Positions 7,299 to 53,404 are shown, counted from the stretch's first letter. The stretch is 64,000 bases of DNA from Clostridia bacterium (GCA_017463405.1 JAFTPJ010000003.1:56103-120102), one strand, 5' to 3'. Numbers and translations: made by a program. The notes: generated from the letters alone by a model not told the origin.

Positions 7299-7331
7299 AG
7301 CTGTCCTCCTTGCTATTTTTTTACATAGATG

Positions 7332-8956: not shown

Positions 8957-8985
8957 TTGACAAGCGAGCGATTTAATGGTATTAT
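8957..8985 (+). promoter_or_regulatory. sigma70/SigA-type promoter (extended -10) for the giant surface-protein gene
   Basis: TTGACA (8957..8962), a 17-nt spacer ending in TGG, then TATTAT (8980..8985). It sits in a ~420-bp AT-rich intergenic region, about 120 nt upstream of ATG 9104. Confidence 0.55.
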
Positions 8986-9103
8986 ATTATATGTATAAGC
9001 ATTTTCGGTTCCTACGCGTATGCGTAAGCGCGTAGAACCAAGTCGAAAATGACCGTTCGGGAAAACTCCGCGAGCGGAATCTGAAACAAAGCGAGGTTTT
9101 GTT

Positions 9104-35967: not shown

Positions 35968-36086
35968 TTGTGAGTCCTCCGTTGACAATTTCTGTTTTTT
36001 ATGCTATAATTATAGCATGCAAAAACACTTAAAAATAGGTGTTTTGGAGCAATTTTTATGCGATTGGATTCACGACGGAGGGGCGT

Positions 36087-36902: not shown

Positions 36903-36915
36903 TGCAGCCCCTTTT
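36887..36915. terminator. Hairpin terminator shared by two convergent AraC genes; marks the left edge of the lower-GC island
   Basis: GGGGCTGC-gtaagtgat-GCAGCCCC followed by TTTT. It overlaps the stop codon of the plus-strand AraC gene (36900..36902) and ends 4 nt before the stop codon of the minus-strand AraC gene (36919..36921). Confidence 0.55.
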
Positions 36916-36918
36916 CGA

Positions 36919-37701: not shown

Positions 37702-37793
37702 ATCATCACCCTGTCTTATTATACCATCTCTCTCCGGTTTTGTCAACCTATATATTTTTTGTGCGGAAAAGTACAAAACGAGAGATTTGTCTA

Positions 37794-37821
37794 TTTACAT
37801 TTTTCGTCTTTGTGCTATACT
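37794..37821 (+). promoter_or_regulatory. Putative promoter of GRE operon 1
   Basis: TTTACA (37794..37799), a 16-nt spacer ending in TGC, then TATACT (37816..37821). It lies about 30 nt upstream of the GGAGG RBS and ATG 37853. Confidence 0.45.
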
Positions 37822-37852
37822 GACGCTACAGAAACTGTTGTGGAGGTAGAAT

Positions 37853-39973
37853 ATGACTGAAAGAATTGCCAAGCTGACAGCCCTGACCCTGTCGGGGCAG
37901 ATGTATGCTACGCCTGTAGCAACGACCTATGATGAAGCTGATCGTCTGTTATCGAGACAGCACATGGAGTCCAAGCGGATTTGCGAATATATTTTGAATC
38001 AAGAGCCCAAGCTGACCGAATATTCATGTATGACAGGATTTTTTAACTTTGACGGAAGCGTTGTGGGGGATGCCTTTCGGCGCGGAGGACACAAGGCAAC
38101 ACAAGAAGCCTTCAAGCTCTTTTATTTGAAGCCCATCGATCATCTTTCCACCATGGAATGGCAGCACGCGACTGCCGACTACACCAAAATACTCAAAAAA
38201 GGGATCCGCGGAATCATTGGTGAGATCGACGCATCGTTGGAGGTGCACAGTGATCCCGAGCAGACGGAATTTTTGACGGCGCTTCGCCGTGTGGCGAATG
38301 CTTTGATCGCGTGGGCACACAAATGCTCGGATCGTGCGTTGGAGCAATCCCGAAAGATTGAGGTCGAAGAATACCGCAAAAATCTTGTAAGGCTTTCAAA
38401 GGCGTTGAAAAGGGTTCCCGAAAATGCTCCCGAGACCTTCTATGAGGCAATTCTTTGTATCTACGTCTGCTTTTCTGCCGATCCCGACAGCATCGGAACG
38501 CTTGACAGATATTTATATCCTTTTTATCAAAGAGATATGGCAAACGGAACACTCACCAAGGAAGCGGCAACAGAATATTTGCAGGAGCTTTTTCTGATGC
38601 TGCAGGCGGCAACGAGCATCACGTCTCCGCATTTCACCCGCGGCGGCGAATCCCATTTTTGCATCGGGGGCTATTTGCCGAGCGGAGAGGACGGCTTCAC
38701 CGAGCTTTCTCAATTGATCGTCGAGAGTATGATCGCGCTTCCCACTTATATTCCGCAGGTCACTTTGCGCTGGACAAAGAAAACGTCTCGCGAGGTATTT
38801 CGTTTTATGCTCGACTGCGAGAGACGCGATCCGCATAAGCGTATTGCCTTCCAAAATGACGAAAAGCGCATCAAGGCTTACACCGAGATCTGCCATATCC
38901 CGTTTGAGAAGGCAGTGGGCTATACCACGGTCGGCTGCAACGAGCCTGCCTTTCTTGGGGCGATCATCGGCAGCAATTCCAAGATCAATTTCGTACATCC
39001 GTTGGAAACGGTTTTTCACCAAAAGTCGGATCGGATCGAATCCGCAAACAGCTACGACGAATTTTTTGACGTGTTTAAAAGCGAGCTGTTTTCCGATCTT
39101 ACCCGCGCATATGAATACGACGATTTTTACAACAAGCAACGCGCGCAGGATATCAACTATATTTCCAGTCTTGTGTTCAACGACTGCATCCAAAATGCGA
39201 AATCCTTGACGCAGGGTGGCGGAAATACTGCCATTTCCGCGCCCATGTGCCTTGGCATCACCAACGTGATCGATTCACTTTGCGTGGTCATGCAATTTGT
39301 TTTTGACGAGCAGATCTTTACCATGCGGGAGCTGATCTCCGCTCTGCAAGCAAATTGGCAGGGATATGAGGACATGCGCACCGTAATTCTCAAAAAGGGA
39401 AAATTCTTTGGAAATGACGATGAAACATCCAATTACGTTGCGCAAAGGCTTTATCGGGAATTGTACGAATTTTTGAAGGAGAAGACCAATCTTTTCGGCT
39501 ACCACATTCTGATCGGTGATCTTTTGGGCTACAATATTCATCACAAATGGTTTGGAGAGCATACGAAGGCGACTCCCGACGGAAGATTTTGGGGGGACAG
39601 CTTGAAATTCGGTCTCGGACAAAGCGAGGGGCGCGATCGCGAGGGATTGTCCGCGCTTCTCAATTCCATTGCAAAGGTTGATCCCAACGGCATTGGTTGC
39701 GGCTCTACCGTCACCAATATTACGCTCGATGAGCAGCTGATCAAAAATGATGACAATTTTGAAAAGACGGTCGATCTGCTTCTGACGTATTTTCAAAACG
39801 GTGGTGTGCATTTTCAATTGACCTACGTCTCCAAGGACGATCTGCGGCAAGCGAAATGTACCCCAGAGGACTACAAGCATCTGCGTGTTCGCGTCACGGG
39901 ATTTTCGGATTATTTCGTCAAGTTGAACGAAGCCATTCAGGACGACATTATTGCAAGGACGGAGCAAAGATGA
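37853..39973 (+). CDS. Glycyl radical enzyme 1 (PFL2/dehydratase-eliminase type, short, function unknown)
   Basis: 706 aa. The Cys loop is TTVGCNEPAF (Cys362 at 38936..38938, Glu364). The C-terminal glycyl-radical fingerprint is HLRVRVTGFSDYF (Gly683 at 39899..39901). Confidence 0.85.
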   Translation: MTERIAKLTALTLSGQMYATPVATTYDEADRLLSRQHMESKRICEYILNQEPKLTEYSCMTGFFNFDGSVVGDAFRRGGHKATQEAFKLFYLKPIDHLSTMEWQHATADYTKILKKGIRGIIGEIDASLEVHSDPEQTEFLTALRRVANALIAWAHKCSDRALEQSRKIEVEEYRKNLVRLSKALKRVPENAPETFYEAILCIYVCFSADPDSIGTLDRYLYPFYQRDMANGTLTKEAATEYLQELFLMLQAATSITSPHFTRGGESHFCIGGYLPSGEDGFTELSQLIVESMIALPTYIPQVTLRWTKKTSREVFRFMLDCERRDPHKRIAFQNDEKRIKAYTEICHIPFEKAVGYTTVGCNEPAFLGAIIGSNSKINFVHPLETVFHQKSDRIESANSYDEFFDVFKSELFSDLTRAYEYDDFYNKQRAQDINYISSLVFNDCIQNAKSLTQGGGNTAISAPMCLGITNVIDSLCVVMQFVFDEQIFTMRELISALQANWQGYEDMRTVILKKGKFFGNDDETSNYVAQRLYRELYEFLKEKTNLFGYHILIGDLLGYNIHHKWFGEHTKATPDGRFWGDSLKFGLGQSEGRDREGLSALLNSIAKVDPNGIGCGSTVTNITLDEQLIKNDDNFEKTVDLLLTYFQNGGVHFQLTYVSKDDLRQAKCTPEDYKHLRVRVTGFSDYFVKLNEAIQDDIIARTEQR

Positions 39974-40103
39974 TATGCAAGACCGAATACACGATTATAT
40001 ACAAGGACACAAAAGAGAAATCATTGATACCTTAAAGAAACTAATCGCAATTCCATCTGTAAGAGGTGAGTCGGAAGAAAATGCGCCCTTTGGCTGAGAA
40101 TGT

Positions 40104-41384
40104 ATGCGGGTGCTTGAATTTACGCAGAATCTATACGAAAGCAACGGCTTTGATACCGAGCTTGACGCAGAGGGTGGTTATCTGCTATCGTATTATGGGG
40201 AAGGAAAAAAGAGCCTCGGCTTATTTGCTCATGCTGACGTTGTGCCTGTCGGTGACGACTGGATCTTGACTTCTCCATTTGAACCAATCGAAAAGGACGG
40301 CTATATCATTGGCAGAGGTGCTATCGATGACAAATCTGCCGTGGTTACCTCGCTGTTCTGCGCAAGGATGCTGAAGGAGCTGAGGATTCCGTTTGGTTCA
40401 CGCTTGGTGATGTTTACGGGCGCGGCGGAAGAAAGTGGAATGGGAGACATTAAAAATTACCTAAAAGCACATACCCCACCCGATTTTTCTTTGATAGCAG
40501 ATACGGCATTTCCTCTTTATAGGGGAAATAAAGGCAGAATCTTATTGAAAGCTACCAAAAATTCAGCCATCGGCGAATTGAAAAGTTTTATAGGAGGAAA
40601 GGCAGGCTCAAACGTCGCCGAGGCAACGGTAAGGCTGAAATACTTTCCTACGCTCTACGAGAGGTTGAAAACAAAGGAAAATGAACGAATATCCGTAAAA
40701 AACGAAAATGACGAGATCGTGATTTCCGCTGTCGGTGTGGGTAAGCATACAGCCTTGCCCGAAGGATCGATCAACGCCGCCGCTTTGATCGCGGAGGTGC
40801 TTTGCACGTGCGAGCTTCTTTCGGACGATACTCGCGAAATCTTACGGTTTATTCGCGATGTCTGTTCGGACTACTACGGTACCTGTCTTGGTATTGAGAA
40901 TGATGACACCGAATTTGGCAGGCTTACCTTTGTAAATTACCAAATCAACGCGGATGAGAGCTCGATCGAGCTGTATTTCAATATCCGTCACGGTCTTGGC
41001 ATCAGCCGATCCGAAATAAAAGAACGCTTGACCGCCGCGGTTGAGCAAAGAGGTTTTGCGCTTGCGTTCTTGGACGCCTCCGATCCTCATATCGTACCCG
41101 AGGATCATCCTATGTTATGCGCATTGATGGACGTATATATAAAATATACGGGAAAGACCAACGCGGAAATGTATGTGAACGCGGGCGGTACTTATGCGCA
41201 GCTTTTGCCTTGCGCCGCAGAAATCGGCACGTCGATCGGCGGCGAAGAGCGCACGCTTGATTTGCCGCAAGGTCATGGAAGCGTGCATCAACCTGATGAA
41301 TGTATCAGCATTGACGGGTTATTGAACGCTATCGAATTAACAATGCTTATGCTACTCGGATGTGATAAGCAACAGGAGGATTGA
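40104..41384 (+). CDS. M20-family metallopeptidase (PepV/DapE/ArgE-like); the N-terminal 43 codons are cut off by an in-frame TGA (full frame 39975..41384)
   Basis: Metal and catalytic motifs are LGLFAHADVVPVGDDW, GRGAIDDKSAV and FTGAAEESGMGD. Upstream and in the same frame, ATG 39975 gives MQDRIHDYIQGHKREIIDTLKKLIAIPSVRGESEENAPFG-TGA(40095..40097)-ECM(40104)RVLEF. That sequence is the normal N-terminus of this family. Confidence 0.75.
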   Translation: MRVLEFTQNLYESNGFDTELDAEGGYLLSYYGEGKKSLGLFAHADVVPVGDDWILTSPFEPIEKDGYIIGRGAIDDKSAVVTSLFCARMLKELRIPFGSRLVMFTGAAEESGMGDIKNYLKAHTPPDFSLIADTAFPLYRGNKGRILLKATKNSAIGELKSFIGGKAGSNVAEATVRLKYFPTLYERLKTKENERISVKNENDEIVISAVGVGKHTALPEGSINAAALIAEVLCTCELLSDDTREILRFIRDVCSDYYGTCLGIENDDTEFGRLTFVNYQINADESSIELYFNIRHGLGISRSEIKERLTAAVEQRGFALAFLDASDPHIVPEDHPMLCALMDVYIKYTGKTNAEMYVNAGGTYAQLLPCAAEIGTSIGGEERTLDLPQGHGSVHQPDECISIDGLLNAIELTMLMLLGCDKQQED

Positions 41385-42536
41385 ATGATGAAGCTTTTAT
41401 TTACGGGCGATATCAATTTCAGAGGACTTCCGGAACCAAACCCCGAAATGTGCGCCGATATTCTTGCAGAGGTGCTGCCGTATTTTGAAATGGCAGATTT
41501 TCGTATTGTCAATTTGGAAACACCTCTTGCAGACAAGGAAAAGCACACGCCTATCAAAAAATCGGGTCCCAACTTAATATGTGACCCGAGCAACATTCTG
41601 TTTTTAGAAACACTCAACGTCGACGTTTGCACACTTGCCAACAATCACACGGGTGACTTTGGCGAAGGTGCGGTTATTGACACGTTAAAGCTTCTTGACA
41701 CACATAATATACGGTACTGCGGTGCGGGCGCAAATATAGAACGCGCGTACGATGCTTGCCGCTTGGAGAAGGACGGCGTATCGGTGTCTTTGATTTCTGT
41801 ATGTGAGAACGAATTTGGTATGGCAACCGAAATTACCTACGGCTCGGCCGGATACAATGCAAGATTACTCATGAATAAAATCCGGCAAGAGAAGGAAGTG
41901 TCTGATGCTGTCATCGTTGTTTTTCACGGAGGAAACGAGTTCAATCCCTTGCCATCACCCGACACACAGGACAGATATCGCTTGATTTGCGATATGGGAG
42001 CCGATGCGGTGATTGCGGGACATACACATTGTCCGCAAGGATACGAAGTATATGACGGTAAGCCCATCATATACAGCATGGGGAATTTCTTGTTCAAAAG
42101 CAGCACCGAGCGTTCCGCAAACGATTCGTGGTACTACGGATATATGGCAGAGCTTGAAGTGATGAAATCAACCGTTGATTTTAATATTATACCTTACAGA
42201 TTTGATCTCGATGTCACAAGAATCAGTGTATTTGAGGGCGAGGATAAACAAAAAATGATCGGATACGTTGATGAGCTATCCAGCATTGTTCGCTCCCCGA
42301 ATTTGCTGGACCACTATTTTTGCGGTTGGTCATATCTGCACAAATGGATTCCGATAGCGCCTTCGGATTATTTTAATTTGGCAGAATATAACAGTGCAGG
42401 ACACTACAATTTGATCTGCTGTGAATCGCACTTGAGCCAAGCGAAAAAGGTCTTTGAATTTTGCTTTTTTGACCGTTTGGAAGAAGCAAAAGAGTGGGCA
42501 GAAAAGATCACCGGGCTTACGAGGATGCCGATATGA
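41385..42536 (+). CDS. CapA/PGA_cap-family metallophosphoesterase-like protein
   Basis: 383 aa. LLFTGDINFRG, VNLETPL, TLANNHTGDFG, VVFHGGNEF and AGHTHCPQGYEVY are present. The start abuts the M20 stop (41384/41385). Confidence 0.75.
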   Translation: MMKLLFTGDINFRGLPEPNPEMCADILAEVLPYFEMADFRIVNLETPLADKEKHTPIKKSGPNLICDPSNILFLETLNVDVCTLANNHTGDFGEGAVIDTLKLLDTHNIRYCGAGANIERAYDACRLEKDGVSVSLISVCENEFGMATEITYGSAGYNARLLMNKIRQEKEVSDAVIVVFHGGNEFNPLPSPDTQDRYRLICDMGADAVIAGHTHCPQGYEVYDGKPIIYSMGNFLFKSSTERSANDSWYYGYMAELEVMKSTVDFNIIPYRFDLDVTRISVFEGEDKQKMIGYVDELSSIVRSPNLLDHYFCGWSYLHKWIPIAPSDYFNLAEYNSAGHYNLICCESHLSQAKKVFEFCFFDRLEEAKEWAEKITGLTRMPI

Positions 42537-43369
42537 TATTAAAAGCAACGATTTTCGATATCCAAAGAAATTCCTACGTCGACGGTCCCGGTATTCGTAC
42601 GACGGTGTTTTTCAAGGGGTGTAATCTGCGCTGCGCGTGGTGCCACAATCCCGAAAGCCAAAGTCACAAGCCGCAGATGCTGTTTTATAAGAACAAGTGT
42701 ACGGGGTGCGGAAAATGCAAGGAAAAATGCCCAAATGCACTTGAAAAATGTGAGCTTTGCGGCAAATGTACCATTTACTGTCTGCACGACGCTCGAGAGA
42801 TCTGCGGAAAGGAATACACGGTCGATGCAGTGCTCCGCGAGATTGTTAAGGATAAGAACTTCTATGAAACCTCGGGGGGCGGAGTGACCTTTTCGGGCGG
42901 GGAATGTATGCTGCAGATCGATTTTCTTACCGAGATTTTGAAGGCGTGTAAAGGAAACGGCATCCATACCGCCGTGGATACCGCAGGACACGTGCCGTAT
43001 GAGCAATTTGAGAGAATCATACCATACACCGATCTGTTTCTCTATGACGTTAAATGCTTTGACAGTGAAAAGCACAAGCAATATACAGGCGTCGGAAACG
43101 AATTGATACTTGAAAATCTGAAAAGGTTACTCGTCGCTGACAAGCCCGTATGGGTGCGGATTCCGATCATTCCCACGGTGAACGATACGGTGGAAGAAAT
43201 ACAAAGGATCAAAGGATGCGTTTGCTCCGGCGGTGCTCCCGAAAAGATCGAGCTTCTCCCGTATCACGCCATGGGAGAGCATAAATATGCCGCGCTTGGG
43301 CGTGTAGAGCCGGTGTTTTCCGTGCCGGAGGCAGATGAAATCGGGAAATTGAGGGACATCTTTTTATAA
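42533..43369 (+). CDS. Glycyl-radical-enzyme activating enzyme 1 (radical SAM)
   Basis: ORF track 42494..43369. I trimmed the start to ATG 42533, which overlaps the CapA-like stop as ATGA. Motifs are GIRTTVFFKGCNLRCAWCHNPES (CxxxCxxC), the ferredoxin-like clusters CTGCGKCKEKCP...CELCGKCTIYC, and GGGVTFSGGE. Confidence 0.9.
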   Translation: MILKATIFDIQRNSYVDGPGIRTTVFFKGCNLRCAWCHNPESQSHKPQMLFYKNKCTGCGKCKEKCPNALEKCELCGKCTIYCLHDAREICGKEYTVDAVLREIVKDKNFYETSGGGVTFSGGECMLQIDFLTEILKACKGNGIHTAVDTAGHVPYEQFERIIPYTDLFLYDVKCFDSEKHKQYTGVGNELILENLKRLLVADKPVWVRIPIIPTVNDTVEEIQRIKGCVCSGGAPEKIELLPYHAMGEHKYAALGRVEPVFSVPEADEIGKLRDIFL

Positions 43370-43383
43370 CAAATAAAGGGAAA

Positions 43384-43422
43384 GGCAATATCAGACCGAT
43401 TTAGGGGCGGGGCGATATTGTC
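43384..43422. terminator. Degenerate member 'd' of the GGCAATATCA hairpin family (start of direct-repeat copy 1)
   Basis: GGCAATATCAgaccgatttaggggcggggcGATATTGTC. It aligns base-for-base with member 'e' at 47613, with several substitutions. Confidence 0.5.
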
Positions 43423-43431
43423 TTTGTTCTT

Positions 43432-43612
43432 TCACTGCGCCATCATTGGCATATTGACCAGCATATTTTCGAGGAAGATGCCGTAGCCCGTGGTCGGGGC
43501 GTTGATCAGTACATGGTGTGACCATATTCCGCTTCGCTCTATGGTAAGCTTGTTTTACAAGCATTGCGCGCCGGCGAGTTTGCTGTTTTGAATGATGGGC
43601 GAGCCCGACAGA
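43432..43612 (-). pseudogene. Orphan, frameshifted copy of the 3' end of spoIVB (last ~45-55 codons)
   Basis: 43437..43498 is identical over 62 nt to 47667..47728, the spoIVB C-terminal codons ...TTGYGIFLENMLVNMPMMA. The TGA is retained at 43434..43432. A 1-nt indel and a ~45-nt insertion (about 43524..43567) break the frame. Homology resumes at roughly 80% identity up to ~43612. Confidence 0.8.
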
Positions 43613-43619
43613 TGTGTGG

Positions 43620-44495
43620 TTAATAGAGGACAACAAATTTTGTGATGTTTTGAATCAATTTTCCTGCCTTTTCAAGATCTGCATTGTTGGGTAATTTTGG
43701 GGGCAACGTGTTTTGAATATCCAATGCACTATATTTGCCATCGGCGTAATCGTGATAGGATAAAAGCCGTATTTTTTTGATATTCCTGAAGGGGGATAAG
43801 AATTTTGCGATTTTTTCCATTTGATCATCGTTATATTCGGGAACGTACGGAATACGGATCTCGATATTAGACCCTATGTCGTCCAAAAATTTGAGATTTT
43901 CCAATATGATCTTGTTTGACTTTCCGGTGCATCGGATATGCGCGTCCTCGTCGTATGCCTTGAGGTCATATAGAAACGTATCGGCATAGGGCAAAATTCG
44001 CTCAAAGGACTTGCGTGGCGCAAAACCGCAGGTATCTATGGCAATATTAACACCGTGTTTCTTTAATTTCCTTGCGATTTCTATGCAAAGCTCGACCTGC
44101 AAAAGCGGTTCTCCACCGGAAAAGGTTACGCCGCCGCCCGAGCCCTTGAAAAACATTTCATCCCGTAGCAGTTCCGTAGCAATATCTCTCGCGGTTCTAT
44201 CCTCGCCGTATATCAGAAACGCATTCCTTGGGCAACAGTCGATGCATCTTCCGCAAAGCGTGCATGCTTCGCGGTCAAAAATATGTATACCGTCGGAAAG
44301 ATTGTTTGCGGAGCACAATTCCGTACATATTCCACAGTCTGTGCAAAGATTTTGAAAAAAGGCGATTTGCCGTTGCATACCGAATGATTCCGGATTATGA
44401 CACCATTTGCAACGGAGAGGGCAGCCCTTAAAAAACAGAGTAGTGCGTATTCCGTCTCCGTCATGCGTTTCAAAGCGTTTGATGGCAAATATCAT
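43620..44495 (-). CDS. Glycyl-radical-enzyme activating enzyme 2 (radical SAM)
   Basis: 291 aa. Motifs are GIRTTLFFKGCPLRCKWCHNPES, the clusters CTDCGICTELC...CTLCGRCIDCCP, and GGGVTFSGGE. The start overlaps the GRE2 stop (ATGA, 44492..44495). Confidence 0.9.
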   Translation of the reverse strand: MIFAIKRFETHDGDGIRTTLFFKGCPLRCKWCHNPESFGMQRQIAFFQNLCTDCGICTELCSANNLSDGIHIFDREACTLCGRCIDCCPRNAFLIYGEDRTARDIATELLRDEMFFKGSGGGVTFSGGEPLLQVELCIEIARKLKKHGVNIAIDTCGFAPRKSFERILPYADTFLYDLKAYDEDAHIRCTGKSNKIILENLKFLDDIGSNIEIRIPYVPEYNDDQMEKIAKFLSPFRNIKKIRLLSYHDYADGKYSALDIQNTLPPKLPNNADLEKAGKLIQNITKFVVLY

Positions 44496-46696
44496 ATATT
44501 TCTTTCCTCGCTTCGTTTAATAAACAATTCCTGCTTTTCTCGACTCATTTTTACAAAATATTCGTTCCACCCACAGACACGTACTTGAAGCGTAGAGTAT
44601 TTGTTCGGCTCATTCAAAGCGTTTTTCAGCGTTTCTGCGCTGACTACGTTTCCTTGAACGGCAAATCCGCCTTGCGCGAAGAAGATTTTGATCAGAGAGC
44701 AGAAGTCCTCAAGCCCCTTGTCACCTTCGATTGCGGAAGGATGAAGGGTGAAATCCAAAATTGCCGAATTGAGAAAAGCAGCCGAATTGATCTTTAATAC
44801 CGATTGCATATAAGCTGTAATGCCGCCTCGATCCATACCGAGCGTTGCACACAGGTTCCTTGAAACGGGCTCTCCCGACCTTCTACCGTCGGGTGTCGCC
44901 ACCGTGCGCACTCCTCGCCAAATGCATTGATCGATAGAGTCGAGGCCGATTCGCAGACGTCTGCTGTGCGCAAACTGTTTTCCTGTGTATTTTTCTTCGA
45001 TATGCGCGGTGATCGCAGTCATAATGGAATCCGGCAGAGGCAACCCGTTTCCGTATTTATCCTTATCGCAAAGCACCCTCTGCCTTAAATCCTCGCGACC
45101 CTCCCAATTCTTCGCCAGGATCTCCCTGAATTCCTCCAAAGAGATTGATCCCTCGTCAAAAACAAGCTTTTTGATTGCCACAAGAGAATCAACCACCGTG
45201 GCAAGCCCAAACAATTTTATTGCCAAATTATTATATTTGAGTGGGTATTCGTGAACGTCCAGTCCGTTCTCTATACATTCGGGAAAGCTCGCGGAATATA
45301 TGGGGGACGGATTTATCTCTGTATTGTAAATGCTCTGCTTTTCGGCAAAGTGGAGGGCAAAATCAACGGCATAGTCCATTTGAGAAAAATAGGTTTCCAA
45401 AAAATCCTCAAAGCACTCAAAATCAGTCTTGCTTTGATAACCGATCTGCTTTCCCGTCAGAATGTCCACGCCGCCGTTTAAAGCGAATTCGATAAATTTG
45501 GCGGCGTTGATCCACGCCACGCCTACCTCACCCTCTTCTTTTCCCATGATGATTGGCTCATAGCAACCGAGGACGACGTAATCGGCGGCATCCTCTCTCG
45601 GTACGTCCAGCTTTTCATATCCGGCAAATACCGCCGCGTCGTTCAGAATACAAATGCTGTTGTGTCCGCTTCTGATCATAGAGAGGGCTTTTTGAAATAA
45701 TTCCTTATTAATATTTTTGTGATAACGGATATGGATTTTCGGATCGTAGATCTTCAATTCGTCATACACGTCGAGGATCAGGTGCGAGAGCATATTGGTG
45801 CGGTCCTTGCCGCTTTTGTCGCAGCCGCAAAGTGTGAAGGGCTGTTCGGCAAATCGCTTTGTGGCGGTGAAATGTAAGAAGAAATACCGGAAAAGTTCTT
45901 TTATTTCGTCGATGCTTTTTCCGTTTTCCAAATCACGCAATACAAACGGGAGATATAATTGGTCAATGGGGCCAAGCGTTCTTGCACGCTCGCAGCCGAT
46001 TTCCTCAACGTAAAGATAAAGCACAGAGAAAAGCATAACTTCATACAGCGTTTGCGGTGGAGTTTTGGTAAGATTCCGCAGTGCTGCCGAGAAATCCGAG
46101 ACGTCAAAGTGCAAGGAATACTCATATACGCGCTCGATGAATCTCAAGATTGCCTTAAAACGGAGAATGACGGAATCAAGAAAGACCAGACGCCTGCTTT
46201 CTGCATGGTCATTTTTCAAGAGTTCTTTCTTGGATTTCTTTGCTTTTTCAAGAATCCCCGAAAAACCGTTTTCCAAAAGAAAATTCCAGTTGGGGACTGT
46301 GTGCCAAAAATCAACCCAGACGGTAGTAAGCCCCACGGAATCACCCTCTAACATTCGGTTGTAATCCCTGGGTAGCTCCCGCTTTAGAATTTTATGCCGT
46401 TGCTTTTGAAACAGCTCTTTATCGTAAATATCGGTGCTCGCGAAACCCGTATAGTCTACGCCAATATTCATTTTGACGGAAAAGGGGGTGTGCTCATTGA
46501 TCTGCAGCTGAACGTTGTCAAGAAGGTATGCATACGCTTTTGCGCATATCATAGGACGCGGCTCTTCTGAATCGCCATTTTGAAATGCTTGCAACCCGAG
46601 CGATAGTTGCTCCGGCGTCAGCCCTGTGCTTTGATCCCATACCGCTTCCTCAAATTCGTTCTCAATGTATTTTCGGTTGCATTCAAAAGTGTTCAT
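44492..46696 (-). CDS. Glycyl radical enzyme 2 (PFL2 type, short, function unknown; paralogous to, but highly diverged from, GRE 1)
   Basis: ORF track 44492..46708. The start is probably ATG 46696 (MNTFECN), which has a GGAGG RBS. The Cys loop is VVLGCYEPII (Cys codon 45565..45563, Glu 45559..45557). The glycyl-radical fingerprint is LQVRVCGWNEYF (Gly codon 44572..44570). Confidence 0.85.
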   Translation of the reverse strand: MNTFECNRKYIENEFEEAVWDQSTGLTPEQLSLGLQAFQNGDSEEPRPMICAKAYAYLLDNVQLQINEHTPFSVKMNIGVDYTGFASTDIYDKELFQKQRHKILKRELPRDYNRMLEGDSVGLTTVWVDFWHTVPNWNFLLENGFSGILEKAKKSKKELLKNDHAESRRLVFLDSVILRFKAILRFIERVYEYSLHFDVSDFSAALRNLTKTPPQTLYEVMLFSVLYLYVEEIGCERARTLGPIDQLYLPFVLRDLENGKSIDEIKELFRYFFLHFTATKRFAEQPFTLCGCDKSGKDRTNMLSHLILDVYDELKIYDPKIHIRYHKNINKELFQKALSMIRSGHNSICILNDAAVFAGYEKLDVPREDAADYVVLGCYEPIIMGKEEGEVGVAWINAAKFIEFALNGGVDILTGKQIGYQSKTDFECFEDFLETYFSQMDYAVDFALHFAEKQSIYNTEINPSPIYSASFPECIENGLDVHEYPLKYNNLAIKLFGLATVVDSLVAIKKLVFDEGSISLEEFREILAKNWEGREDLRQRVLCDKDKYGNGLPLPDSIMTAITAHIEEKYTGKQFAHSRRLRIGLDSIDQCIWRGVRTVATPDGRRSGEPVSRNLCATLGMDRGGITAYMQSVLKINSAAFLNSAILDFTLHPSAIEGDKGLEDFCSLIKIFFAQGGFAVQGNVVSAETLKNALNEPNKYSTLQVRVCGWNEYFVKMSREKQELFIKRSEERNI

Positions 46697-46721
46697 GGGC
46701 ACCTCCATATGGTTTTTCTTT

Positions 46722-46750
46722 ATTATAGTACCGAACGACAGTTGCGTAAA
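46722..46750 (-). promoter_or_regulatory. Putative promoter of the GRE2-activase operon
   Basis: The reverse complement reads TTTACG-caactgtcgttcggtac(17)-TATAAT, about 25 nt upstream of the ATG. Confidence 0.45.
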
Positions 46751-46790
46751 TACACAAAATGATCATTATGGATTTTTCGCTCATTTTTTG

Positions 46791-46819
46791 TTGACATTTT
46801 TTTATGAATATGGTATACT
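46791..46819 (+). promoter_or_regulatory. Putative promoter of the divergent AraC gene
   Basis: TTGACA-tttttttatgaatatgg(17)-TATACT, about 25 nt upstream of ATG 46846. Confidence 0.55.
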
Positions 46820-46845
46820 GTAAGCGAATAAGAGAGGTGGCTTTT

Positions 46846-47607
46846 ATGGAACGTGATCTTGTTATTGAAAAGGTGTGTTCGGTATTTGAGGGAGTGTTCA
46901 ATGTGGGATATATTCCGAGGGATAAGTCGCGGCACAGTGACGCGTTTGTTCTTTATACCAAGGGAGAGGCGGACTATATTTTTTCGGAGCAAGTGGCGAC
47001 CGTTAAGGTGGGAAATCTGCTTTATTTGCCGAAAAACAGCATGTATAATATTGATGTTAAGCAAAAAAGTAAGTTTATTTGTATTGATTTTTGTTTTTCC
47101 CCATCCGATGCGGAAATGCGTAGCTTCGTTTCCCAAAAGGTCGGTATAAATATCCAAGGTGATTTTGCCCGTGCCCTTCATAACTGGATGAAAAATGACA
47201 TCTCCCGTTTGCCGAAATTCTATGCGATCCTGTATGATATCTACGGAGCGATCCTTGATGCCGAAAACAATAAATATACCAATTCCGGCGGTATTTTTTC
47301 AAGAGCAATTGATATCATTTTGCAAAACTACAGTGACGCGGATTTTTCCGTCAATGATCTTTGCGAGCAGCTTGGGCTCTCTTCCGCGCACGTGCGAAGA
47401 ATTTTTATGGAAAATGCTCACGTTTCTCCCGTGAAATATCTCAATTACTTACGATGTGAGCAGGCAAAAAATCTGTTGCTCACCTCCAACCTTTCCATTA
47501 AGGAGATCTCGGAGTCCATCGGCTTTTCTGATCCGTTATACTTTAGCCGAGCATTCAAAAAAAGCGTCGGGATATCGCCCTTGGAATATAGAAAAAATAA
47601 TGCATAA
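46846..47607 (+). CDS. AraC-family transcriptional regulator, divergent from GRE cassette 2
   Basis: ORF track 46804..47607. I trimmed the start to ATG 46846 (MERDLVIEKV), which has a GAGAGGTGG RBS. The C-terminal HTH is ...SSAHVRRIFMENAHVSPVKYLNYLRCEQAKNLLLTSNLSIKEISESIGFSDPLYFSRAFKKSVGISPLEYR. Confidence 0.85.
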   Translation: MERDLVIEKVCSVFEGVFNVGYIPRDKSRHSDAFVLYTKGEADYIFSEQVATVKVGNLLYLPKNSMYNIDVKQKSKFICIDFCFSPSDAEMRSFVSQKVGINIQGDFARALHNWMKNDISRLPKFYAILYDIYGAILDAENNKYTNSGGIFSRAIDIILQNYSDADFSVNDLCEQLGLSSAHVRRIFMENAHVSPVKYLNYLRCEQAKNLLLTSNLSIKEISESIGFSDPLYFSRAFKKSVGISPLEYRKNNA

Positions 47608-47612
47608 GAAAA

Positions 47613-47652
47613 GGCAATATCAAACCGATTTTAAGGTCGGAATGATATTGCC
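47613..47652. terminator. Bidirectional terminator hairpin, member 'e' of the GGCAATATCA family (start of direct-repeat copy 2)
   Basis: aaaaGGCAATATCAaaCCGAttttaaggTCGGaaTGATATTGCCttt, located between the AraC (+) and spoIVB (-) ends. Confidence 0.65.
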
Positions 47653-47661
47653 TTTGTGCTT

Positions 47662-48813
47662 TCACCGCGCCATCATTGGCATATTGACCAGCATATTTTC
47701 GAGGAAGATGCCGTAGCCCGTGGTCGGGTCGTTGATGAGCACGTGGGTGACCGCGCCGACTAATTTGCCGTTTTGGATGATGGGGGAACCTGACATTCCC
47801 TGCACAATCCCGCCCGTAACGGCGAGCAGATCGGGGTCTGTTACGGTGACCGTATAGCATTTGGAGCCCTTGGCGTCGCGATTAATATTGGAAATTTTCA
47901 CGTCGTATTTTTCCGTTTTGTTGGAATCGAGTGTGCAGAGGATATAGGCGTCGCCCTCCTCAATCTCGTCGCGAAGTCCCACGGGCATCGGGTCGAGTGT
48001 GCACTCGGGAACCTCGGAAAACATTCCCCAGACGCCGCAGGTCGAGTTTCCGAGGAGTGCGCCGACCTTACCTGCATTGAAATAGCCCTTCAATTCTCCC
48101 GGAGCGCCCGACGCGCCCTTGACCACCGAGGAGATTGTTACGTCCGATACCGTGCCGCGCTTCATGGAGATCAGCGATCCAGTGTCGGCGTCGCAGATGC
48201 CGTGACCGAGTCCCGCGAAGGCACCCGTGTCGGGCAGGATAAAGGTGACGGTTCCGATCCCCGCGCCGCTGTCGCGTACCCAAATACCGGTTTTATAGCG
48301 GGCTTCTGCGTTACAGTAGACGGGGGTGAGCTGTGTTTCAAATTCGCGCTTGCCACGGCGGCAGAGCAGGGTCAGCTCCCGTCCTCCGCATGCTTCGATG
48401 CGGTCGGTCAGATCGTTGGCGCTTGTCAACGCGATACCGTCCACCTTCAGGATCATATCCTTTGGACGAAGCCCTGCGACGGTTGCGGGGTTGACGCTCC
48501 CATGCTCGGTTTCTACATCACAGAATCCAACCACCGTTACACCTTCGGTATAAAATTTAACGCCGAACGGCATTCCGCCCGGATAAACATTGAGATCCTG
48601 CAGAGACTCGGGAGCGAGCGTGGGAGATGTGATTGTCAGTGGCTGTGTGTTTGAAACGGTGGAGATGAGCGAGGTGGGGGCTGTGAATTGATTGCTCATG
48701 GCAAAAGCGATCTCCTTTTCGGGTGTTCCCGCCGAAATGGGTACCGCAAGCGAGTATGTGGTACAGACCATCAGCAGGAAGCAGCACAGGAGCTTCCAAA
48801 TTCGTTTTCTCAT
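47662..48813 (-). CDS. spoIVB: SpoIVB stage IV sporulation signalling serine peptidase (S55)
   Basis: 383 aa. It has an N-terminal signal/anchor, a PDZ-like segment, the catalytic His in FAGLGHGICD and the catalytic Ser in GMSGSPIIQNGKLVGAVTHV. Confidence 0.85.
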   Translation of the reverse strand: MRKRIWKLLCCFLLMVCTTYSLAVPISAGTPEKEIAFAMSNQFTAPTSLISTVSNTQPLTITSPTLAPESLQDLNVYPGGMPFGVKFYTEGVTVVGFCDVETEHGSVNPATVAGLRPKDMILKVDGIALTSANDLTDRIEACGGRELTLLCRRGKREFETQLTPVYCNAEARYKTGIWVRDSGAGIGTVTFILPDTGAFAGLGHGICDADTGSLISMKRGTVSDVTISSVVKGASGAPGELKGYFNAGKVGALLGNSTCGVWGMFSEVPECTLDPMPVGLRDEIEEGDAYILCTLDSNKTEKYDVKISNINRDAKGSKCYTVTVTDPDLLAVTGGIVQGMSGSPIIQNGKLVGAVTHVLINDPTTGYGIFLENMLVNMPMMAR

Positions 48814-49089
48814 AGTTTTTACCTTTCTTTATACAGCGGGCAAACGGAGGTGGCAGTTGGCGGATGCGGTATGGAGGAATGCGTTTTACTGTGGCTTGTC
48901 TCCGTGCGCCGGATTTTTTTCGGTTGGCAATTGGAAGCGGCAGACTGTAATATCGTCCGCCGCTTTGTTTGCTGATACTAATGTGCGCTGCTCTCCGTGT
49001 TTTCATGTGTAACAATGATAACCATGAAATCCTTTTGAAAGGCAATTGATTAGTTTATCAATAAATTACTTTTTGTTCACAAAAAGTTG

Positions 49090-49118
49090 TTGAAATCGAA
49101 ATAGCTTTTACATATAAT
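49090..49118 (+). promoter_or_regulatory. Putative promoter of the MarR-ABC exporter operon, followed by a 10-bp palindrome
   Basis: TTGAAA-tcgaaatagcttttaca(17)-TATAAT. The perfect palindrome AAACTAGTTT at 49127..49136 lies between -10 and the RBS. Confidence 0.5.
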
Positions 49119-49155
49119 TTATTTGTAAACTAGTTTTGAGGAGGGAGAGAAGGAG

Positions 49156-49647
49156 ATGGAACAGAATCGCAAGGATGGGGATATGAAATGCAAGTGCAGA
49201 TTTTCCCCTACACCGCCGATGCTAGTCAATGAAATATCAAGGCTGTTTCAAGCACGGATGCGACAATATGATCTGTCGGGTGTGATGTCGCAGGACAGTG
49301 CGCGGTTGATGATGCGTGCACTTTCTCGCGAGGACGGTGTCAGTCAATTGCATTTGACAAGCGTGACGCATCTGAAGGCGCCGACAGTCAGTGTTACCCT
49401 GAAAAAGATGGAGGAGGAGGGACTTGTCCGCCGCGAGCAGGATAAGCTCGATCTGCGCATGACGCGTGTGTATCTGACAGAACGAGGAAAGGAACACAAT
49501 CGGGGTGTTTGGGACAGATTGCAGGAGCTGGATGCTACGCTGATGAAAAATTTTACCGCCGAGGAGACCGAGCAGATGAGGAAGCTTCTGGAACGAATGC
49601 GTGATAATATTTTGTCCTCCGAGAAGGGAAAGAATACAGAAAATTGA
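49156..49647 (+). CDS. MarR-family transcriptional regulator
   Basis: 163 aa. The winged-helix core is ...LSREDGVSQLHLTSVTHLKAPTVSVTLKKMEEEGLVRREQDKLDLRMTRVYLTERG. Confidence 0.8.
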   Translation: MEQNRKDGDMKCKCRFSPTPPMLVNEISRLFQARMRQYDLSGVMSQDSARLMMRALSREDGVSQLHLTSVTHLKAPTVSVTLKKMEEEGLVRREQDKLDLRMTRVYLTERGKEHNRGVWDRLQELDATLMKNFTAEETEQMRKLLERMRDNILSSEKGKNTEN

Positions 49648-49697
49648 AAAAACGAACACGGAAAACAAATAGAATATTTACCGATGGAGGAAAAATT

Positions 49698-51518
49698 TTG
49701 AAAAGAACCTTGAAATCTTACATCAAGCCCTATCTGTTTCTTGCGATCATCTCGCCGATCATGATGATGTGCGAGGTGCTGGCAGACCTGTGCCTGCCGT
49801 TTCTGATGTCCTTTATCGTGGACTATGGCATCTTGGAAAACGGCTTGCAGGCGATCCGTGAGGACGGTGGATTTGCGTATTGGGTGATGACGTTGCTGTT
49901 CGATGAGCAATTTGATCAGCTGCACATTATCCTGACATTTGGAATTATGATGCTTCTGATCACATTGATCGGCGGATTTTTCGGCACTTTTTGCGCCTAC
50001 ACATCGGCGCGCGCGGCACAGAGCTTCGGGCACGATTTGCGCCGTGACGCATACCGCCGCGTGATGTCCTTGTCGATCGAGCAGACCGATCGCTTTACAA
50101 CGGGCTCTCTTGTGACGCGTATGACCAACGACGTATCGATGGTTGTGGAATTTGTGGAGATGATTACCCGTCATTTCGTTCGCGCGCCTATGTTCTTTGT
50201 GGGAGGCACGGTGATGCTTCTGATGCTCAACGTCAACTTCGGCGTGATCCTGTTGTGTGCACTTCCGATTCTTGCGCTGACCATCTTTTTGGTGCTCCGA
50301 CGTGCGATTCCGATGTATTCGGTGATCCAGAAAAAGCTGGACAGTGTCAACTCCGTCGTGCAAGAAAACGTCAGCGGTGCGCGCGTCGTCAAAGCGTATG
50401 TATGCGAGGATTTTGAAAATGAACGCTTTGCCAATGCAAACGACGAGCTTTGTTCGGTCAACTACCGCGTGCTCAAGCTGATGGCAATCGTGACTCCCGT
50501 GCTGCATATCGTGCAGAACGGGGCGGTCATTGCGCTGTTGTATATCGGTGCGATTGATCTGAATGCGGGATTTGGCGGGATGAGCACGGGTACGGTTATG
50601 GCGGGTGTCACCTATATTACGCAAGTTGTCAACTCGATCATGATGGCGACTATGATGTTTCAATCTATCTCCCGTGCGATGGCTTCGGGCAAGCGCGTGC
50701 GCGAGGTACTGCATACCGAGCCCGTGATTGTCAGAGGTGACCGTGTGGGCGTTGAGACGCCGATCGCGATCTCGATGAAAAACGTCGGCTTCCGTTATCC
50801 TGGAACGGTGGGAAGCCCCGTGCTTCACAATATCAATCTGGAGGTCAGGCGCGGTGAGACGCTTGCCGTGATCGGCGCGACGGGCTGCGGAAAGACCTCG
50901 CTCGTCAATCTGATCCCGCGTTTTTATGATGCGTCGGAGGGATGCGTGGAGATCGACGGAGTGCCGATCGGGGAGCTTGACATGAATGTGCTTCGCAAGA
51001 AGATCGGGTACGTTTTGCAAAAGAGCGAGCTATTCTCGGATACGGTTGCAAACAACATCCGTTGGGGCGATCCCGATGCGAGCGAGGAGGATATCCGAAA
51101 TGCCGCACGCATCGCACAGGCGGACGGATTTATTACCGGCTTCAACGAAGGTTACGACACTTTTATTGCGGAGAAGGGGGCGTCTTTGTCGGGGGGACAG
51201 AAGCAGCGTATTTCCATTGCACGTGCACTGACGCGCAAGCCCGAAATCCTGATTTTCGACGATTCGACCTCCGCGCTTGATCTTGCTACCGAGGCGAGAT
51301 TGCAGAAGGCTTTGCGTGAGAATCTGAAAGATACCACGGTGATTATGATCGCACAGCGGATTGCCAGTGTCAAGAACGCGGATCGCATTGCGGTGTTGGA
51401 AAACGGTACGATCACAGAGTGCGCGCCGCATGAGGAATTGATGCGCATCAGTGAGACGTATCGCGAAATTTACGCGTCGCAGATGAAGCAGAGCGAGGAA
51501 GGAGGGGTGAGAGCATGA
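49698..51518 (+). CDS. ABC exporter, fused permease/ATPase (type I exporter half-transporter A)
   Basis: ORF track 49644..51518. The likely TTG start at 49698 has a GGAGG RBS 8 nt upstream. Six TM helices are followed by Walker A GATGCGKTS, signature LSGGQKQR and Walker B ILIFDD. Confidence 0.85.
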   Translation: MKRTLKSYIKPYLFLAIISPIMMMCEVLADLCLPFLMSFIVDYGILENGLQAIREDGGFAYWVMTLLFDEQFDQLHIILTFGIMMLLITLIGGFFGTFCAYTSARAAQSFGHDLRRDAYRRVMSLSIEQTDRFTTGSLVTRMTNDVSMVVEFVEMITRHFVRAPMFFVGGTVMLLMLNVNFGVILLCALPILALTIFLVLRRAIPMYSVIQKKLDSVNSVVQENVSGARVVKAYVCEDFENERFANANDELCSVNYRVLKLMAIVTPVLHIVQNGAVIALLYIGAIDLNAGFGGMSTGTVMAGVTYITQVVNSIMMATMMFQSISRAMASGKRVREVLHTEPVIVRGDRVGVETPIAISMKNVGFRYPGTVGSPVLHNINLEVRRGETLAVIGATGCGKTSLVNLIPRFYDASEGCVEIDGVPIGELDMNVLRKKIGYVLQKSELFSDTVANNIRWGDPDASEEDIRNAARIAQADGFITGFNEGYDTFIAEKGASLSGGQKQRISIARALTRKPEILIFDDSTSALDLATEARLQKALRENLKDTTVIMIAQRIASVKNADRIAVLENGTITECAPHEELMRISETYREIYASQMKQSEEGGVRA

Positions 51519-53404
51519 ATAACGGTGAAAGAAGACCCTCCGGGGGAGGAAACGGAAATCCACCGATCATTCCGCTGGGCGGCAGACGCGGTCCCGGTGG
51601 CGGAGGACCCATGGCGGCACGCATGAATGCGGAAAAACCCAAGAATACCAAGCGGACGGTCGGACGACTGTTGCATTATATCGGACGCAGTAAGGTCATC
51701 CTGATCGTTTTACTCGGCATCATGCTGGCGGTCACAGTGGCGGATCTGTTGGGACCGTTCTTCCAGGCGAAGGCGATCGATACCTTCAAGGTGGACGGCG
51801 CGGGGAATTTCTTCGTTGACATGAACGTGCTGACGGGGTATCTGATCGCGATGGTTGTGATCTTCGTTTGCAGTGCGTCGCTGTCCTTTTTCCAAGGGGT
51901 GCTGTCGGCAAAGCTTTCTCAACAAACAGTGCGGAGCATGCGCGGAGATCTGTTCAAAAAGATCTCGCATCTGCCAATCAGCTACACCGATTCGCACCGC
52001 CACGGCGATATTATGTCGCGTATGACAAATGACGTGGAGAATGTCTCCAACGCCATCTCGCAATCCATCACCACACTGTTTTCCTGCGTGCTGACTTTGG
52101 TCGGTGCTTTGGTGATGATGCTTTATTACAGCTGGGAGATGACTTTGATCGCGATGATCAGCATTCCGCTATCGATTCTTGTGTCCTCACAGCTCGGCAA
52201 ATTCATGCGCAAGTATTTCGTGCGTCAGCAAAAGCTGCTCGGTCAGCTCAACGGGCAGGTCGAGGAGACGGTGACATCTTATAAGACCGTGGTTGCGTTC
52301 GGCAAGGAACCCGAATCGGTGGAAAAATTCGCGGCGATTTCATACGAGCTTCGCTCCTGTGCTGTCAAGGCGAAGGTCTGGGGCTCGATCATGGGGCCGA
52401 TCATGAACTTCATCGGAAATCTGCAGTACGTCCTCATCGCGGCGACGGGCGGATGGATGGTGCTCGGCGGCTTCGGTTCGGTTACGGTGGGCAGCATTCA
52501 GGCGATGCTACAGTACTCCAAGAAATTCACGCATCCGATCAATCAGATTGCAAACCAGTATTCGAGCATTCTGACCGCGCTTGCGGGTGCGGAGCGCATT
52601 TTTGAGATCATGGACAGCGCGGACGAGGTGGACGAGGGCAAGAAAAAGCTCGATGCCGCCGCAGTCAAGGGCAACATCGAGTTTCGGGATATTCGATTCG
52701 GATACGTTCCGGGTGAGCCCGTGCTCAAGGGGCTGAATCTTTCGGTCAAGCCGGGGCAAAAGATTGCCATCGTCGGCGCGACCGGATCGGGCAAGACGAC
52801 CGTGGTCAATCTGCTCACACGCTTTTATGAGCTGGACGGTGGCAGTATTACAATCGACGGTGTCAATATCACCGATATTCCGAAGGCGGAGCTGCGCCGC
52901 ATGATCGCCATCGTTCTGCAGGATACAGTGCTGTTTTCGGACACCATCCGCAACAACATTAAGTATGGACACAGAGAATCCGATGACGAAAAAATGCGTG
53001 CATCTGCCGCAACGGCACGGGCGGATCATTTCATCGACCGTCTGCCCGACGGTTACGACACGGTGCTTGCCGAGTCGGGCTCGAATCTGTCGCAGGGACA
53101 GAGACAGCTGCTCGCGATCGCGCGTGCGGTGCTGGCGGACCCGAAGATCCTGATTCTGGACGAGGCGACCTCGAATGTGGACACGCGTACCGAGATGCAT
53201 ATTCAGCAGGCGATGGTTGCTTTGATGAAGAACCGCACCTCGCTGATCATCGCGCACCGACTTTCGACCATCCGCGACGCGGACGTGATCGTGGTGATCA
53301 AGGACGGCAAGGTTGCGGAGTCGGGTAATCACGATACGCTCCTCTCGCTTGGCGGCGAATACGCAAAGCTGTACAGTAACCAGTTCGCGGGCGTGGCGAC
53401 GTAA
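51515..53404 (+). CDS. ABC exporter, fused permease/ATPase (half-transporter B)
   Basis: 629 aa. It overlaps the upstream gene as ATGA. It has a Gly/Pro-rich N-terminal extension, then GATGSGKTT, LSQGQRQL and ILILDE. Confidence 0.85.
   Translation: MNNGERRPSGGGNGNPPIIPLGGRRGPGGGGPMAARMNAEKPKNTKRTVGRLLHYIGRSKVILIVLLGIMLAVTVADLLGPFFQAKAIDTFKVDGAGNFFVDMNVLTGYLIAMVVIFVCSASLSFFQGVLSAKLSQQTVRSMRGDLFKKISHLPISYTDSHRHGDIMSRMTNDVENVSNAISQSITTLFSCVLTLVGALVMMLYYSWEMTLIAMISIPLSILVSSQLGKFMRKYFVRQQKLLGQLNGQVEETVTSYKTVVAFGKEPESVEKFAAISYELRSCAVKAKVWGSIMGPIMNFIGNLQYVLIAATGGWMVLGGFGSVTVGSIQAMLQYSKKFTHPINQIANQYSSILTALAGAERIFEIMDSADEVDEGKKKLDAAAVKGNIEFRDIRFGYVPGEPVLKGLNLSVKPGQKIAIVGATGSGKTTVVNLLTRFYELDGGSITIDGVNITDIPKAELRRMIAIVLQDTVLFSDTIRNNIKYGHRESDDEKMRASAATARADHFIDRLPDGYDTVLAESGSNLSQGQRQLLAIARAVLADPKILILDEATSNVDTRTEMHIQQAMVALMKNRTSLIIAHRLSTIRDADVIVVIKDGKVAESGNHDTLLSLGGEYAKLYSNQFAGVAT

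Follow-up and report, generated by a model that had tools for sequence, protein, structure and literature searches.

Two adjacent gene cassettes for glycyl radical enzymes (GREs) lie in a 64,000-nucleotide stretch of DNA from a Clostridia bacterium (GCA_017463405.1, JAFTPJ010000003.1:56103-120102), the whole of which is referred to as the window. The second, cassette 2, is the subject of this work and comprises three genes, conserved as a unit across 36 non-redundant orthologous loci, for a glycyl radical enzyme (GRE2), its activating enzyme (activase 2) and a divergently transcribed AraC-family regulator. The GRE2 open reading frame spans 44492..46708 on the minus strand, and translation likely starts at the ATG at 46696 rather than at 46708, because a GGAGG sequence sits 5 nt before the former, giving a protein of 734 aa (44492..46696). 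Pfam detects PFL-like (3e-87) and Gly_radical (1.9e-20) domains, and the key residues comprise His132, Cys378, Tyr379 and Glu380, the last three in the Cys loop LGCYEP, as well as Gly709 in the glycyl loop RVCGWNEY. The C-terminus, R706-V-C-G709-W-NEYFVK-M-SREK-Q-EL-F-IK-R, fits the superfamily fingerprint quoted from the literature, RVxG[FWY]x6-8[FL]x4Qx2[IV]x2R, except for Met at [FL] and Phe at [IV]. An NCBI protein 100% identical to GRE2 is annotated as 'hypothetical protein' of a Clostridia bacterium. The window belongs to a metagenome-assembled genome of an uncultured member of the Clostridia, and a search of E. coli genomes gave no match.

The GRE2 stop codon overlaps the start of activase 2 as ATGA. 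Activase 2 (43620..44495, minus strand, 291 aa) is a radical S-adenosylmethionine (radical-SAM) glycyl-radical activating enzyme that scores 312 bits against TIGR02494 (cut-off 174), with Radical_SAM, Fer4_12 and Fer4 domains and a CX3CX2C motif and two ferredoxin-like Cys motifs. On the opposite strand, the AraC-family gene (46846..47607, plus strand) is called as 253 aa with the ribosome-binding site GAGAGGTGG. Its start most likely is at 46846, the longer open reading frame from 46804 probably not being used, so that the TTGACA promoter described below precedes the gene instead of lying within it. The C-terminal double helix-turn-helix is readily recognised (HTH_18, 3.6e-22; HTH_AraC, 5.7e-17). 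The N-terminal half is without a Pfam match in the window protein, with weak AraC_binding matches in some orthologues, and can be aligned with that of the cassette-1 AraC protein.

Between the two start codons lie 149 bp (46697-46845) with two promoter-like sites in back-to-back arrangement. The site for GRE2 and activase 2, found in a consensus scan, is TTTACG-17-TATAAT (46750-46722, minus strand, 10/12), and that for the AraC gene is TTGACA-17-TATACT with an extended TG (46791-46819, plus strand, 11/12), the best match of the region. Both rank in the top three of the 12 sites in the region, for which shuffled sequences predict 7.6 +/- 2.8. An Rfam scan of 35500-49500 gave no match, hence no riboswitch is recognised around the cassette. 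An earlier note on this DNA had described GRE2 with its two loops, the overlapping activase and the paired promoters, all of which are recovered here, together with a spacer of 137 bp, which has to be corrected to the value above.

The flanks of cassette 2 point to its insertion into the 3' end of spoIVB (47662-48813). A segment just beyond the activase-1 stop codon of cassette 1, 43381-43523, repeats 47610-47752 with ~90% identity at a spacing of 4230 bp, and weaker similarity runs on to 43616 and 47801, respectively, past a 44-bp insertion in the left copy (~43524-43567). The repeated unit consists of the last ~45 codons of spoIVB and its terminator, and its left copy is broken. On the right, the final ~44 codons of the intact gene, from Met-Ser-Gly-Ser-Pro onwards (47662..47795, minus strand), represent a putative element-borne replacement end, adjoined by a bidirectional terminator hairpin with a perfect 13-bp stem that is shared by the AraC gene and spoIVB (47610..47655) and is likewise assigned to the element. 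On the left, the displaced remnant of the old spoIVB end, ~45 codons and a stop (43432..43610, minus strand), is recognised by the SpoIVB C-terminus in tblastn (6e-16), its similarity ending at the ATG-TCA-GG codons of the gene, and is followed by the old terminator hairpin, AAAGGCAATATC...GATATTGTCTTT (43381..43425, minus strand), a direct repeat of 47610-47655. A conserved element-end motif, TTTGTTGTCCTCTATTAACCACACA (43613..43637, minus strand), overlaps the last codons and the stop of activase 2, with the putative crossover TG at 43609-43610. From this architecture we infer that 43611-47795 (4185 bp) is an integrative cassette mobilised in trans. No large serine recombinase homologue is found in the 64-kb window, which argues that the cassette is non-autonomous. 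An assembly artefact as the source of the repeat was considered and set aside, as the same architecture recurs in many independent metagenome-assembled genomes (MAGs).

Partial spoIVB 3' ends are present in ~12 related loci, always beginning at the codons of the GMSGSP motif (the window and L012, L013, L021, L023, L024, L029, L030, L041, L045, L046 and L079). Some of these form arrays, with three cassettes in L024, each ending in a remnant, and two in L012. Nearly every remnant with upstream sequence in its locus is directly preceded by a motif that does not derive from spoIVB, TTGTTGTCCCnnnTTGACCACAC, whose pattern has 22 matches in 1.62 Mb, nearly all at remnant junctions; in L013, L024 and L046 the end motif also adjoins the end of the activase gene. 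The cargo of other array cassettes includes AraC with GH28, BNR with DHDPS and AraC, and an AbiEii toxin. The spoIVB 3' end thus appears as an integration hot spot for tandem small, mostly AraC-regulated cassettes.

The strict motif pattern had no match in metagenome contigs, and the end motif none in viral contigs, while a relaxed scan of the metagenome contigs for motif and core returned 46 loci. In 9 of these 46, two or three large serine recombinase genes in tandem, with Resolvase, Recombinase and Zn_ribbon_recom domains, stand 20-190 bp ahead of the motif (L096, at 1603-6578, and L099, L100, L101, L117, L123, L125, L133 and L136). These loci presumably are autonomous elements that target spoIVB. 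No paper linking spoIVB with serine recombinases was found in the literature searched. Ordinary homologous recombination, of the Campbell type or homology-facilitated, between spoIVB and foreign DNA carrying a spoIVB fragment would also leave flanking repeats, and the length (~190-240 bp) and identity (80-92%) of the repeats, together with the lack of a recombinase in the cassette, are compatible with it. However, all remnants begin at the same codons, a conserved motif of ~25 bp foreign to spoIVB abuts each of them, and this motif follows serine recombinase genes in nine independent contigs, making such an origin improbable.

We therefore favor site-specific integration, in which a large serine recombinase supplied in trans is the most likely inserting agent. 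The element would bring its own replacement for the spoIVB 3' end and leave the old end as a remnant beside cassette 1. As the replacement keeps spoIVB intact and would regenerate an attB-like site, cassettes could accrete serially, the newest lying nearest to spoIVB. Cassette 1 would have been directly downstream of spoIVB before the arrival of cassette 2, and the two would now be neighbours because 43611-47795 inserted into the spoIVB 3' end.

Several observations relate to these sites. Upstream of spoIVB, at 49156-53404, lie a MarR gene and two ABC exporter genes, a synteny shared by L012, L029 and L041, which identifies this as the conserved chromosomal flank of the hot spot. A 4228-bp Logan contig from an independent assembly (L008) contains the cassette only, with both ends within the repeats, as expected if the assembly broke off there, a result from which a circular form is indistinguishable. 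AraC-GRE-activase units are also bracketed by repeats at sites other than spoIVB. In L033 the repeats (2764-2952 and 7145-7331; 189 bp, 92%) consist of the 3'-terminal part of a gene whose 489-aa product has an AP_endonuc_2 domain, in L003 they enclose a unit that includes a GH2-like gene (8847-9030 and 15702-15883), and in L042 they are found at 1-119 and 5417-5535. The three cases suggest additional target sites besides spoIVB.

Cassette 1 extends from an AraC gene (36919-37776) through activase 1 (42494-43369), and its enzyme, GRE1 (37853..39973, plus strand, 706 aa), served for comparison. GRE1 has a GCNE Cys loop and the glycyl loop RVTGFSDY, differing from the GCYE and RVCGWNEY of GRE2 as the earlier note had observed. 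Its estimate by eye that the cassettes are only distantly similar is borne out by pairwise alignment, with 27% identity between the GREs over 636 aa in BLASTP (24.3% in the trimmed alignment), 44% between the activases and 26% between the two AraC proteins; high identity between the cassettes is not observed. In a trimmed alignment of 134 sequences, assembled without experimentally characterised enzymes and used for neighbour-joining and for mean identities, GRE2 shares on average 33.7% with its own clade, 27.4% with canonical PFL2-type representatives and 24.3% with GRE1, and GRE1 shares 26.8% with the canonical types and 23.5% with the GRE2 clade. GRE1 joins the canonical, non-GCYE sequences to the exclusion of every GCYE sequence in 39/40 bootstraps; when motif labels were used as groups the count was 0/40, a few sequences being mislabelled, and the value of 39/40 comes from the redefined test. 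The low identities and separate branches argue that GRE1 and GRE2 are related at the superfamily level only, with no recent duplication.

Had cassette 1 been duplicated in tandem here and the copies then diverged, the tail-to-tail neighbourhood of the cassettes, their three shared gene types and the 44% identity of the activases would be explained, but such an origin is hardly credible given GREs of 24-27% identity on different deep branches and att-like boundaries specific to cassette 2. Moreover, GRE1 orthologues of 81-86% identity, in more than 120 clusters, occur elsewhere without GRE2, often beside MobA, integrase or resolvase genes. The earlier note had proposed two different substrates rather than a recent duplication. 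Of this, the latter half is upheld by the low identity, the deep separation and the separate att-flanked element, and the former is still an inference, by which GRE1 and GRE2 would use different substrates.

The neighbours that travel with the enzymes, which the earlier note had suggested recording, are M20, PGA_cap, SDR and PTE for GRE1 orthologues and GH2-like and GDSL genes for those of GRE2. In the window, GRE1 and activase 1 are separated within their cassette (36919-43369) by one gene of the M20 dipeptidase-like type and one of the PGA_cap type, and the relatives of this cassette in L014, L015 and L016 add SDR and PTE and adjoin MobA, integrase, resolvase or TnpV genes. The GRE1 substrate seems to be peptide- or amino-acid-related, not sugar-related. 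Upstream of GRE1, two AraC-family genes lie tail to tail (36039-36902, plus strand; 36919-37776, minus strand), an AraC_binding domain being recognisable in the first only.

GRE2 itself falls below every NCBIfam equivalog cut-off searched. Against TIGR01774 (PFL2/glycerol dehydratase) it scores 338 bits, over profile positions 157-784 only, where 678 are required, and the earlier label 'PFL2-type' thus holds loosely; against the HypD, CutC, HpsG, HpfG, PflD, IAD, HPAD and PFL models it reaches 71-273 bits, with cut-offs of 994-1150. The best solved sequence relatives are Archaeoglobus fulgidus PFL2, glycerol dehydratase and HplG (2f3o, 1r8w and 7vua; top score 247 bits). An AlphaFold model (predicted local distance difference test score, pLDDT, 87.9) superimposes on all solved eliminases and isomerases with template modelling (TM) scores of 0.83-0.88 at 20-25% identity, no single partner standing out. 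A search of 1.84 billion cluster representatives (50% identity clusters) yielded 4964 matches, and the following description is based on the best 150 of these. Only one representative, that of the GRE2 orthogroup, exceeds 50% identity to GRE2; most measure 680-760 aa, share 28-45% identity with it and outscore any characterised enzyme, and ~110 carry both a GCYE Cys loop and a Q-[VI]-R-x-C-G-W-N glycyl loop. Taking these two loops and a length of ~680-760 aa as defining a GCYE/CGWN clade, GRE2 has all three features and GRE1 neither motif. No paper with the motif strings was found in the literature searched, and a literature search on GRE and AraC clusters returned nothing useful. By these measures the clade of GRE2 is large and uncharacterised, and neither GRE1 nor any characterised enzyme is part of it.

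This placement has to be weighed against GRE2 being a diverged orthologue of glycerol/propanediol dehydratase, HypD or related hydroxyproline enzymes, CutC, sulfonate lyases or YbiW/PflD. In favour are the shared fold, the Cys-x-Glu (CXE) motif and an equivalent of the dehydratase His164, the closest sequence matches being 2f3o, 1r8w and 7vua. We consider such orthology very unlikely. The scores against the subfamily and full-length equivalog models, 173-338 bits, are far from the cut-offs of 678-1150, all solved enzymes are equally distant (20-25% identity), and GRE2 does not retain key residues through which glycerol dehydratase contacts its substrate. In addition, more than 100 cluster representatives are nearer to GRE2 than any characterised enzyme, and microcompartment, aldehyde dehydrogenase and sulfite reductase genes were not found nearby. 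Assignment to a known functional clade, which the earlier note had named as contrary evidence, is thus not obtained for GRE2.

Some genomes have more than one enzyme of the GCYE/CGWN clade. The closest relative with flanking sequence (L005, 6815-13068, equivalent to L017) encodes a GRE 83% identical to GRE2 and, directly upstream, a second GCYE/CGWN enzyme (42% identical) with its own AraC gene. The latter has no activase of its own, hence the two GREs appear to share one. Two to three paralogues of the GCYE/CGWN enzyme are also present in several other MAGs.

The clade-conserved positions of GRE2 include D129, H132, R239, P286, K320, S347, C378, Y379 and E380, as well as N614, D648, H652, C708, G709, W710 and N711. 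When aligned with glycerol dehydratase, Cys378/Glu380 and His132 match Cys433/Glu435 and His164, and they are 94-100% conserved over 109 clade representatives (Glu380 at 94%), Cys378 being invariant in orthologues and clade alike. All characterised GRE eliminases and isomerases retain CXE, with the Glu bound to a substrate hydroxyl (PMC13450708, a 2026 review). Positions fixed only in the GRE2 orthogroup include T133, E284, G392, H482, D586 and T650, which may be specificity determinants. We note that Cys occupies residues 390 and 392 alike in about half of the clade, a C-x-C motif just after the Cys loop, in place of which the GRE2 orthogroup has Glu390 and Gly392 (window ~45521-45529, minus strand).

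The odd residues beside both radical-bearing positions and the short length of GRE2 might be taken as signs of a decaying or non-catalytic paralogue. The reading frame is, however, intact and translationally coupled to that of the activase, ~140 positions are invariant in 29 orthologues of 55-84% identity, the clade-wide catalytic residues are present and the structural model is confident, so that loss of catalysis is highly improbable. We class GRE2 among the CXE-type glycyl radical enzymes, as a member of a large clade that is unstudied and linked to sugars.

The link to sugars comes from gene neighbourhoods and fusions. The divergent AraC gene is present in 36/36 and the downstream activase in 35/36 of the non-redundant orthologous loci, and the sole recurrent extra gene, in 8/36, encodes a 717-aa protein directly after the activase, which among solved structures is closest to GH2 beta-mannosidases (2e-47). 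This GH2-like gene is in some loci followed by one for a GDSL esterase. Moreover, GCYE/CGWN GREs occur fused behind N-terminal carbohydrate-active domains in proteins of 1025-1533 aa, namely a GH78 rhamnosidase (P0345), a GH2 mannosidase-like domain (P0372), a SASA esterase (P0378) and AXE1 esterases (P0380 and P0388), and the GH2 region of P0372 shows homology to the GH2-like protein of the operons (9e-44). These fusions and the operonic gene point to a carbohydrate substrate, probably a carbohydrate or sugar derivative released by cytoplasmic glycosidases or esterases. As a separate case, a canonical-type GRE is combined with an F5/8 type C domain in P0358. Genes outside the cassette (GFO/IDH/MocA, AP_endonuc_2, HAD, BNR/DHDPS) were also considered as substrate clues and given no weight, because separate cassettes lie beyond the visible att-like boundaries in the spoIVB arrays.

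Alternatively, GRE2 may use a substrate other than a carbohydrate, such as an amino alcohol or a different amine, and cleave it by C-N elimination. Compared with glycerol dehydratase, its pocket is predicted to be more acidic owing to the orthogroup-invariant Asp586 and the clade-wide Asp648, and no gene of the window cassette is sugar-specific, while the GH78, GH2, SASA and AXE1 fusions and the operonic GH2 and GDSL genes indicate sugars; we regard an amine as the less likely substrate, with a modest chance of being correct. Relatives of GH2 beta-mannosidases include glucosaminidases, and an amino sugar would thus satisfy both proposals.

Returning to a carbohydrate substrate, we propose the following sequence of events. 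The AraC protein would sense a small molecule and activate the divergent promoter, whereupon GRE2 and activase 2 would be made as a translationally coupled pair. Using S-adenosylmethionine and its Fe-S clusters, activase 2 would place a radical on Gly709, from where it would move to Cys378, which in turn would abstract a hydrogen atom from a hydroxyl-bearing carbon of the substrate. Glu380 would hold the substrate hydroxyl and His132 would aid the departure of the adjacent C-O (or C-N) leaving group. As in known Cys-x-Glu GREs, the expected outcome is a radical dehydration or a ring-opening isomerisation, for which YbiW/PflD would offer the nearest chemical precedent.

Taken together, cassette 2 is likely a self-contained, substrate-inducible radical-enzyme module, probably sugar-acting, on a small non-autonomous integrative element in spoIVB. 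Several points count against this interpretation. The action of a recombinase is deduced from the co-location of motif and recombinase genes in other contigs, the phylogeny is a neighbour-joining tree of 134 sequences with the characterised enzymes left out, and the GRE fusion proteins are known from metagenome gene calls. Genes for a transporter or a downstream enzyme are absent from the window cassette. The pocket was mapped purely by sequence alignment, in which residues of glycerol dehydratase are replaced (Asp447 by Gly392, Tyr640 by Asp586 and Asn702 by Asp648, as well as His281-Ser282 by Arg237-Ala238), and the more acidic pocket could fit an amine instead. Finally, with Tyr following the radical Cys and Cys preceding the radical Gly, the reaction may not follow the chemistry of known eliminases.

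A bolder proposal, which we offer tentatively and would not expect to hold in full, is that the GCYE/CGWN enzymes form a new functional class acting on free sugars or glycosides, through dehydration, ring opening or glycosidic C-O cleavage, with GH2, GH78 and esterase partners. The Tyr at Cys+1 and the Cys at Gly-1 would then reflect a modified radical transfer, and the enzymes would spread among gut Clostridia as integrase-less AraC cassettes, assembled into integron-like arrays at spoIVB by serine recombinases acting in trans.

The GRE2 cassette represents a clade with more than 100 subfamilies, and because each compact operon has its own sensor, enzyme and inducer are both directly testable. 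The glycosidase and esterase fusions point to an undescribed anaerobic carbohydrate route in ruminant and human gut Clostridia. The arrays at the spoIVB end indicate shuffling of catabolic modules among uncultured sporeformers and provide a candidate for a new serine-recombinase/att pair.

Compared with known enzymes, GRE2 resembles glycerol/1,2-propanediol dehydratase (1r8w, 5i2a/5i2g) in the ten-stranded barrel fold of its model (TM 0.86-0.88), the Cys-x-Glu motif, the near-C-terminal glycyl loop and the general-acid His (His164, equivalent to His132), and both have a neighbouring gene for a dedicated activase with two extra Fe-S motifs. However, identity amounts to 22-23%, GRE2 is ~50 residues shorter, its residue at Cys+1 is Tyr where the dehydratases have Val, its glycyl loop reads Cys-Gly-Trp-Asn in place of Ala/Ser-Gly-Tyr-Ser, and it does not retain Asp447, Tyr640 and the His281-Ser282 loop; its cassette is without microcompartment genes and has a divergent AraC gene as regulator. 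The sole characterised GREs acting on sugars are the anhydro-hexitol-6-phosphate ring-opening isomerases YbiW/PflD (8id7, 8id0). They share CXE with GRE2, the Glu being on a sugar hydroxyl in YbiW/PflD, and are a plausible chemical model, but identity is ~22%, the PflD model gives 229 bits (cut-off 1109), the Cys- and Gly-loop signatures differ, and cassette 2 has no phosphotransferase system, kinase or aldolase genes. The best-scoring solved relative is A. fulgidus PFL2 (2f3o; 247 bits, Foldseek 1e-41), which is 25% identical to GRE2, has GCVE and RVAGWS loops, and the function of which is still under debate.

The integration also has precedents. Phage 21 and e14 in icd supply an alternative 3' end to the target gene, the original end remaining as a diverged direct repeat; these are prophages with tyrosine integrases, whereas cassette 2 is a 4.2-kb unit without an integrase. 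SCCmec and pseudo-SCC composite islands at the 3' end of rlmH (orfX), together with cis-mobilisable elements (CIMEs), offer another parallel, in which large serine recombinases insert DNA at the 3' end of a conserved gene and direct repeats flank the units. Recombinase-less units there stand in tandem with autonomous ones, and the arrays grow by accretion. Relative to these systems, the target of cassette 2 would be the GMSGSP codons of spoIVB, ~130 bp of replacement coding sequence would be carried along, the putative autonomous forms with the end motif have up to three tandem recombinase genes, and the cargo of the spoIVB elements consists of AraC-regulated catabolic modules in uncultured gut Clostridia.

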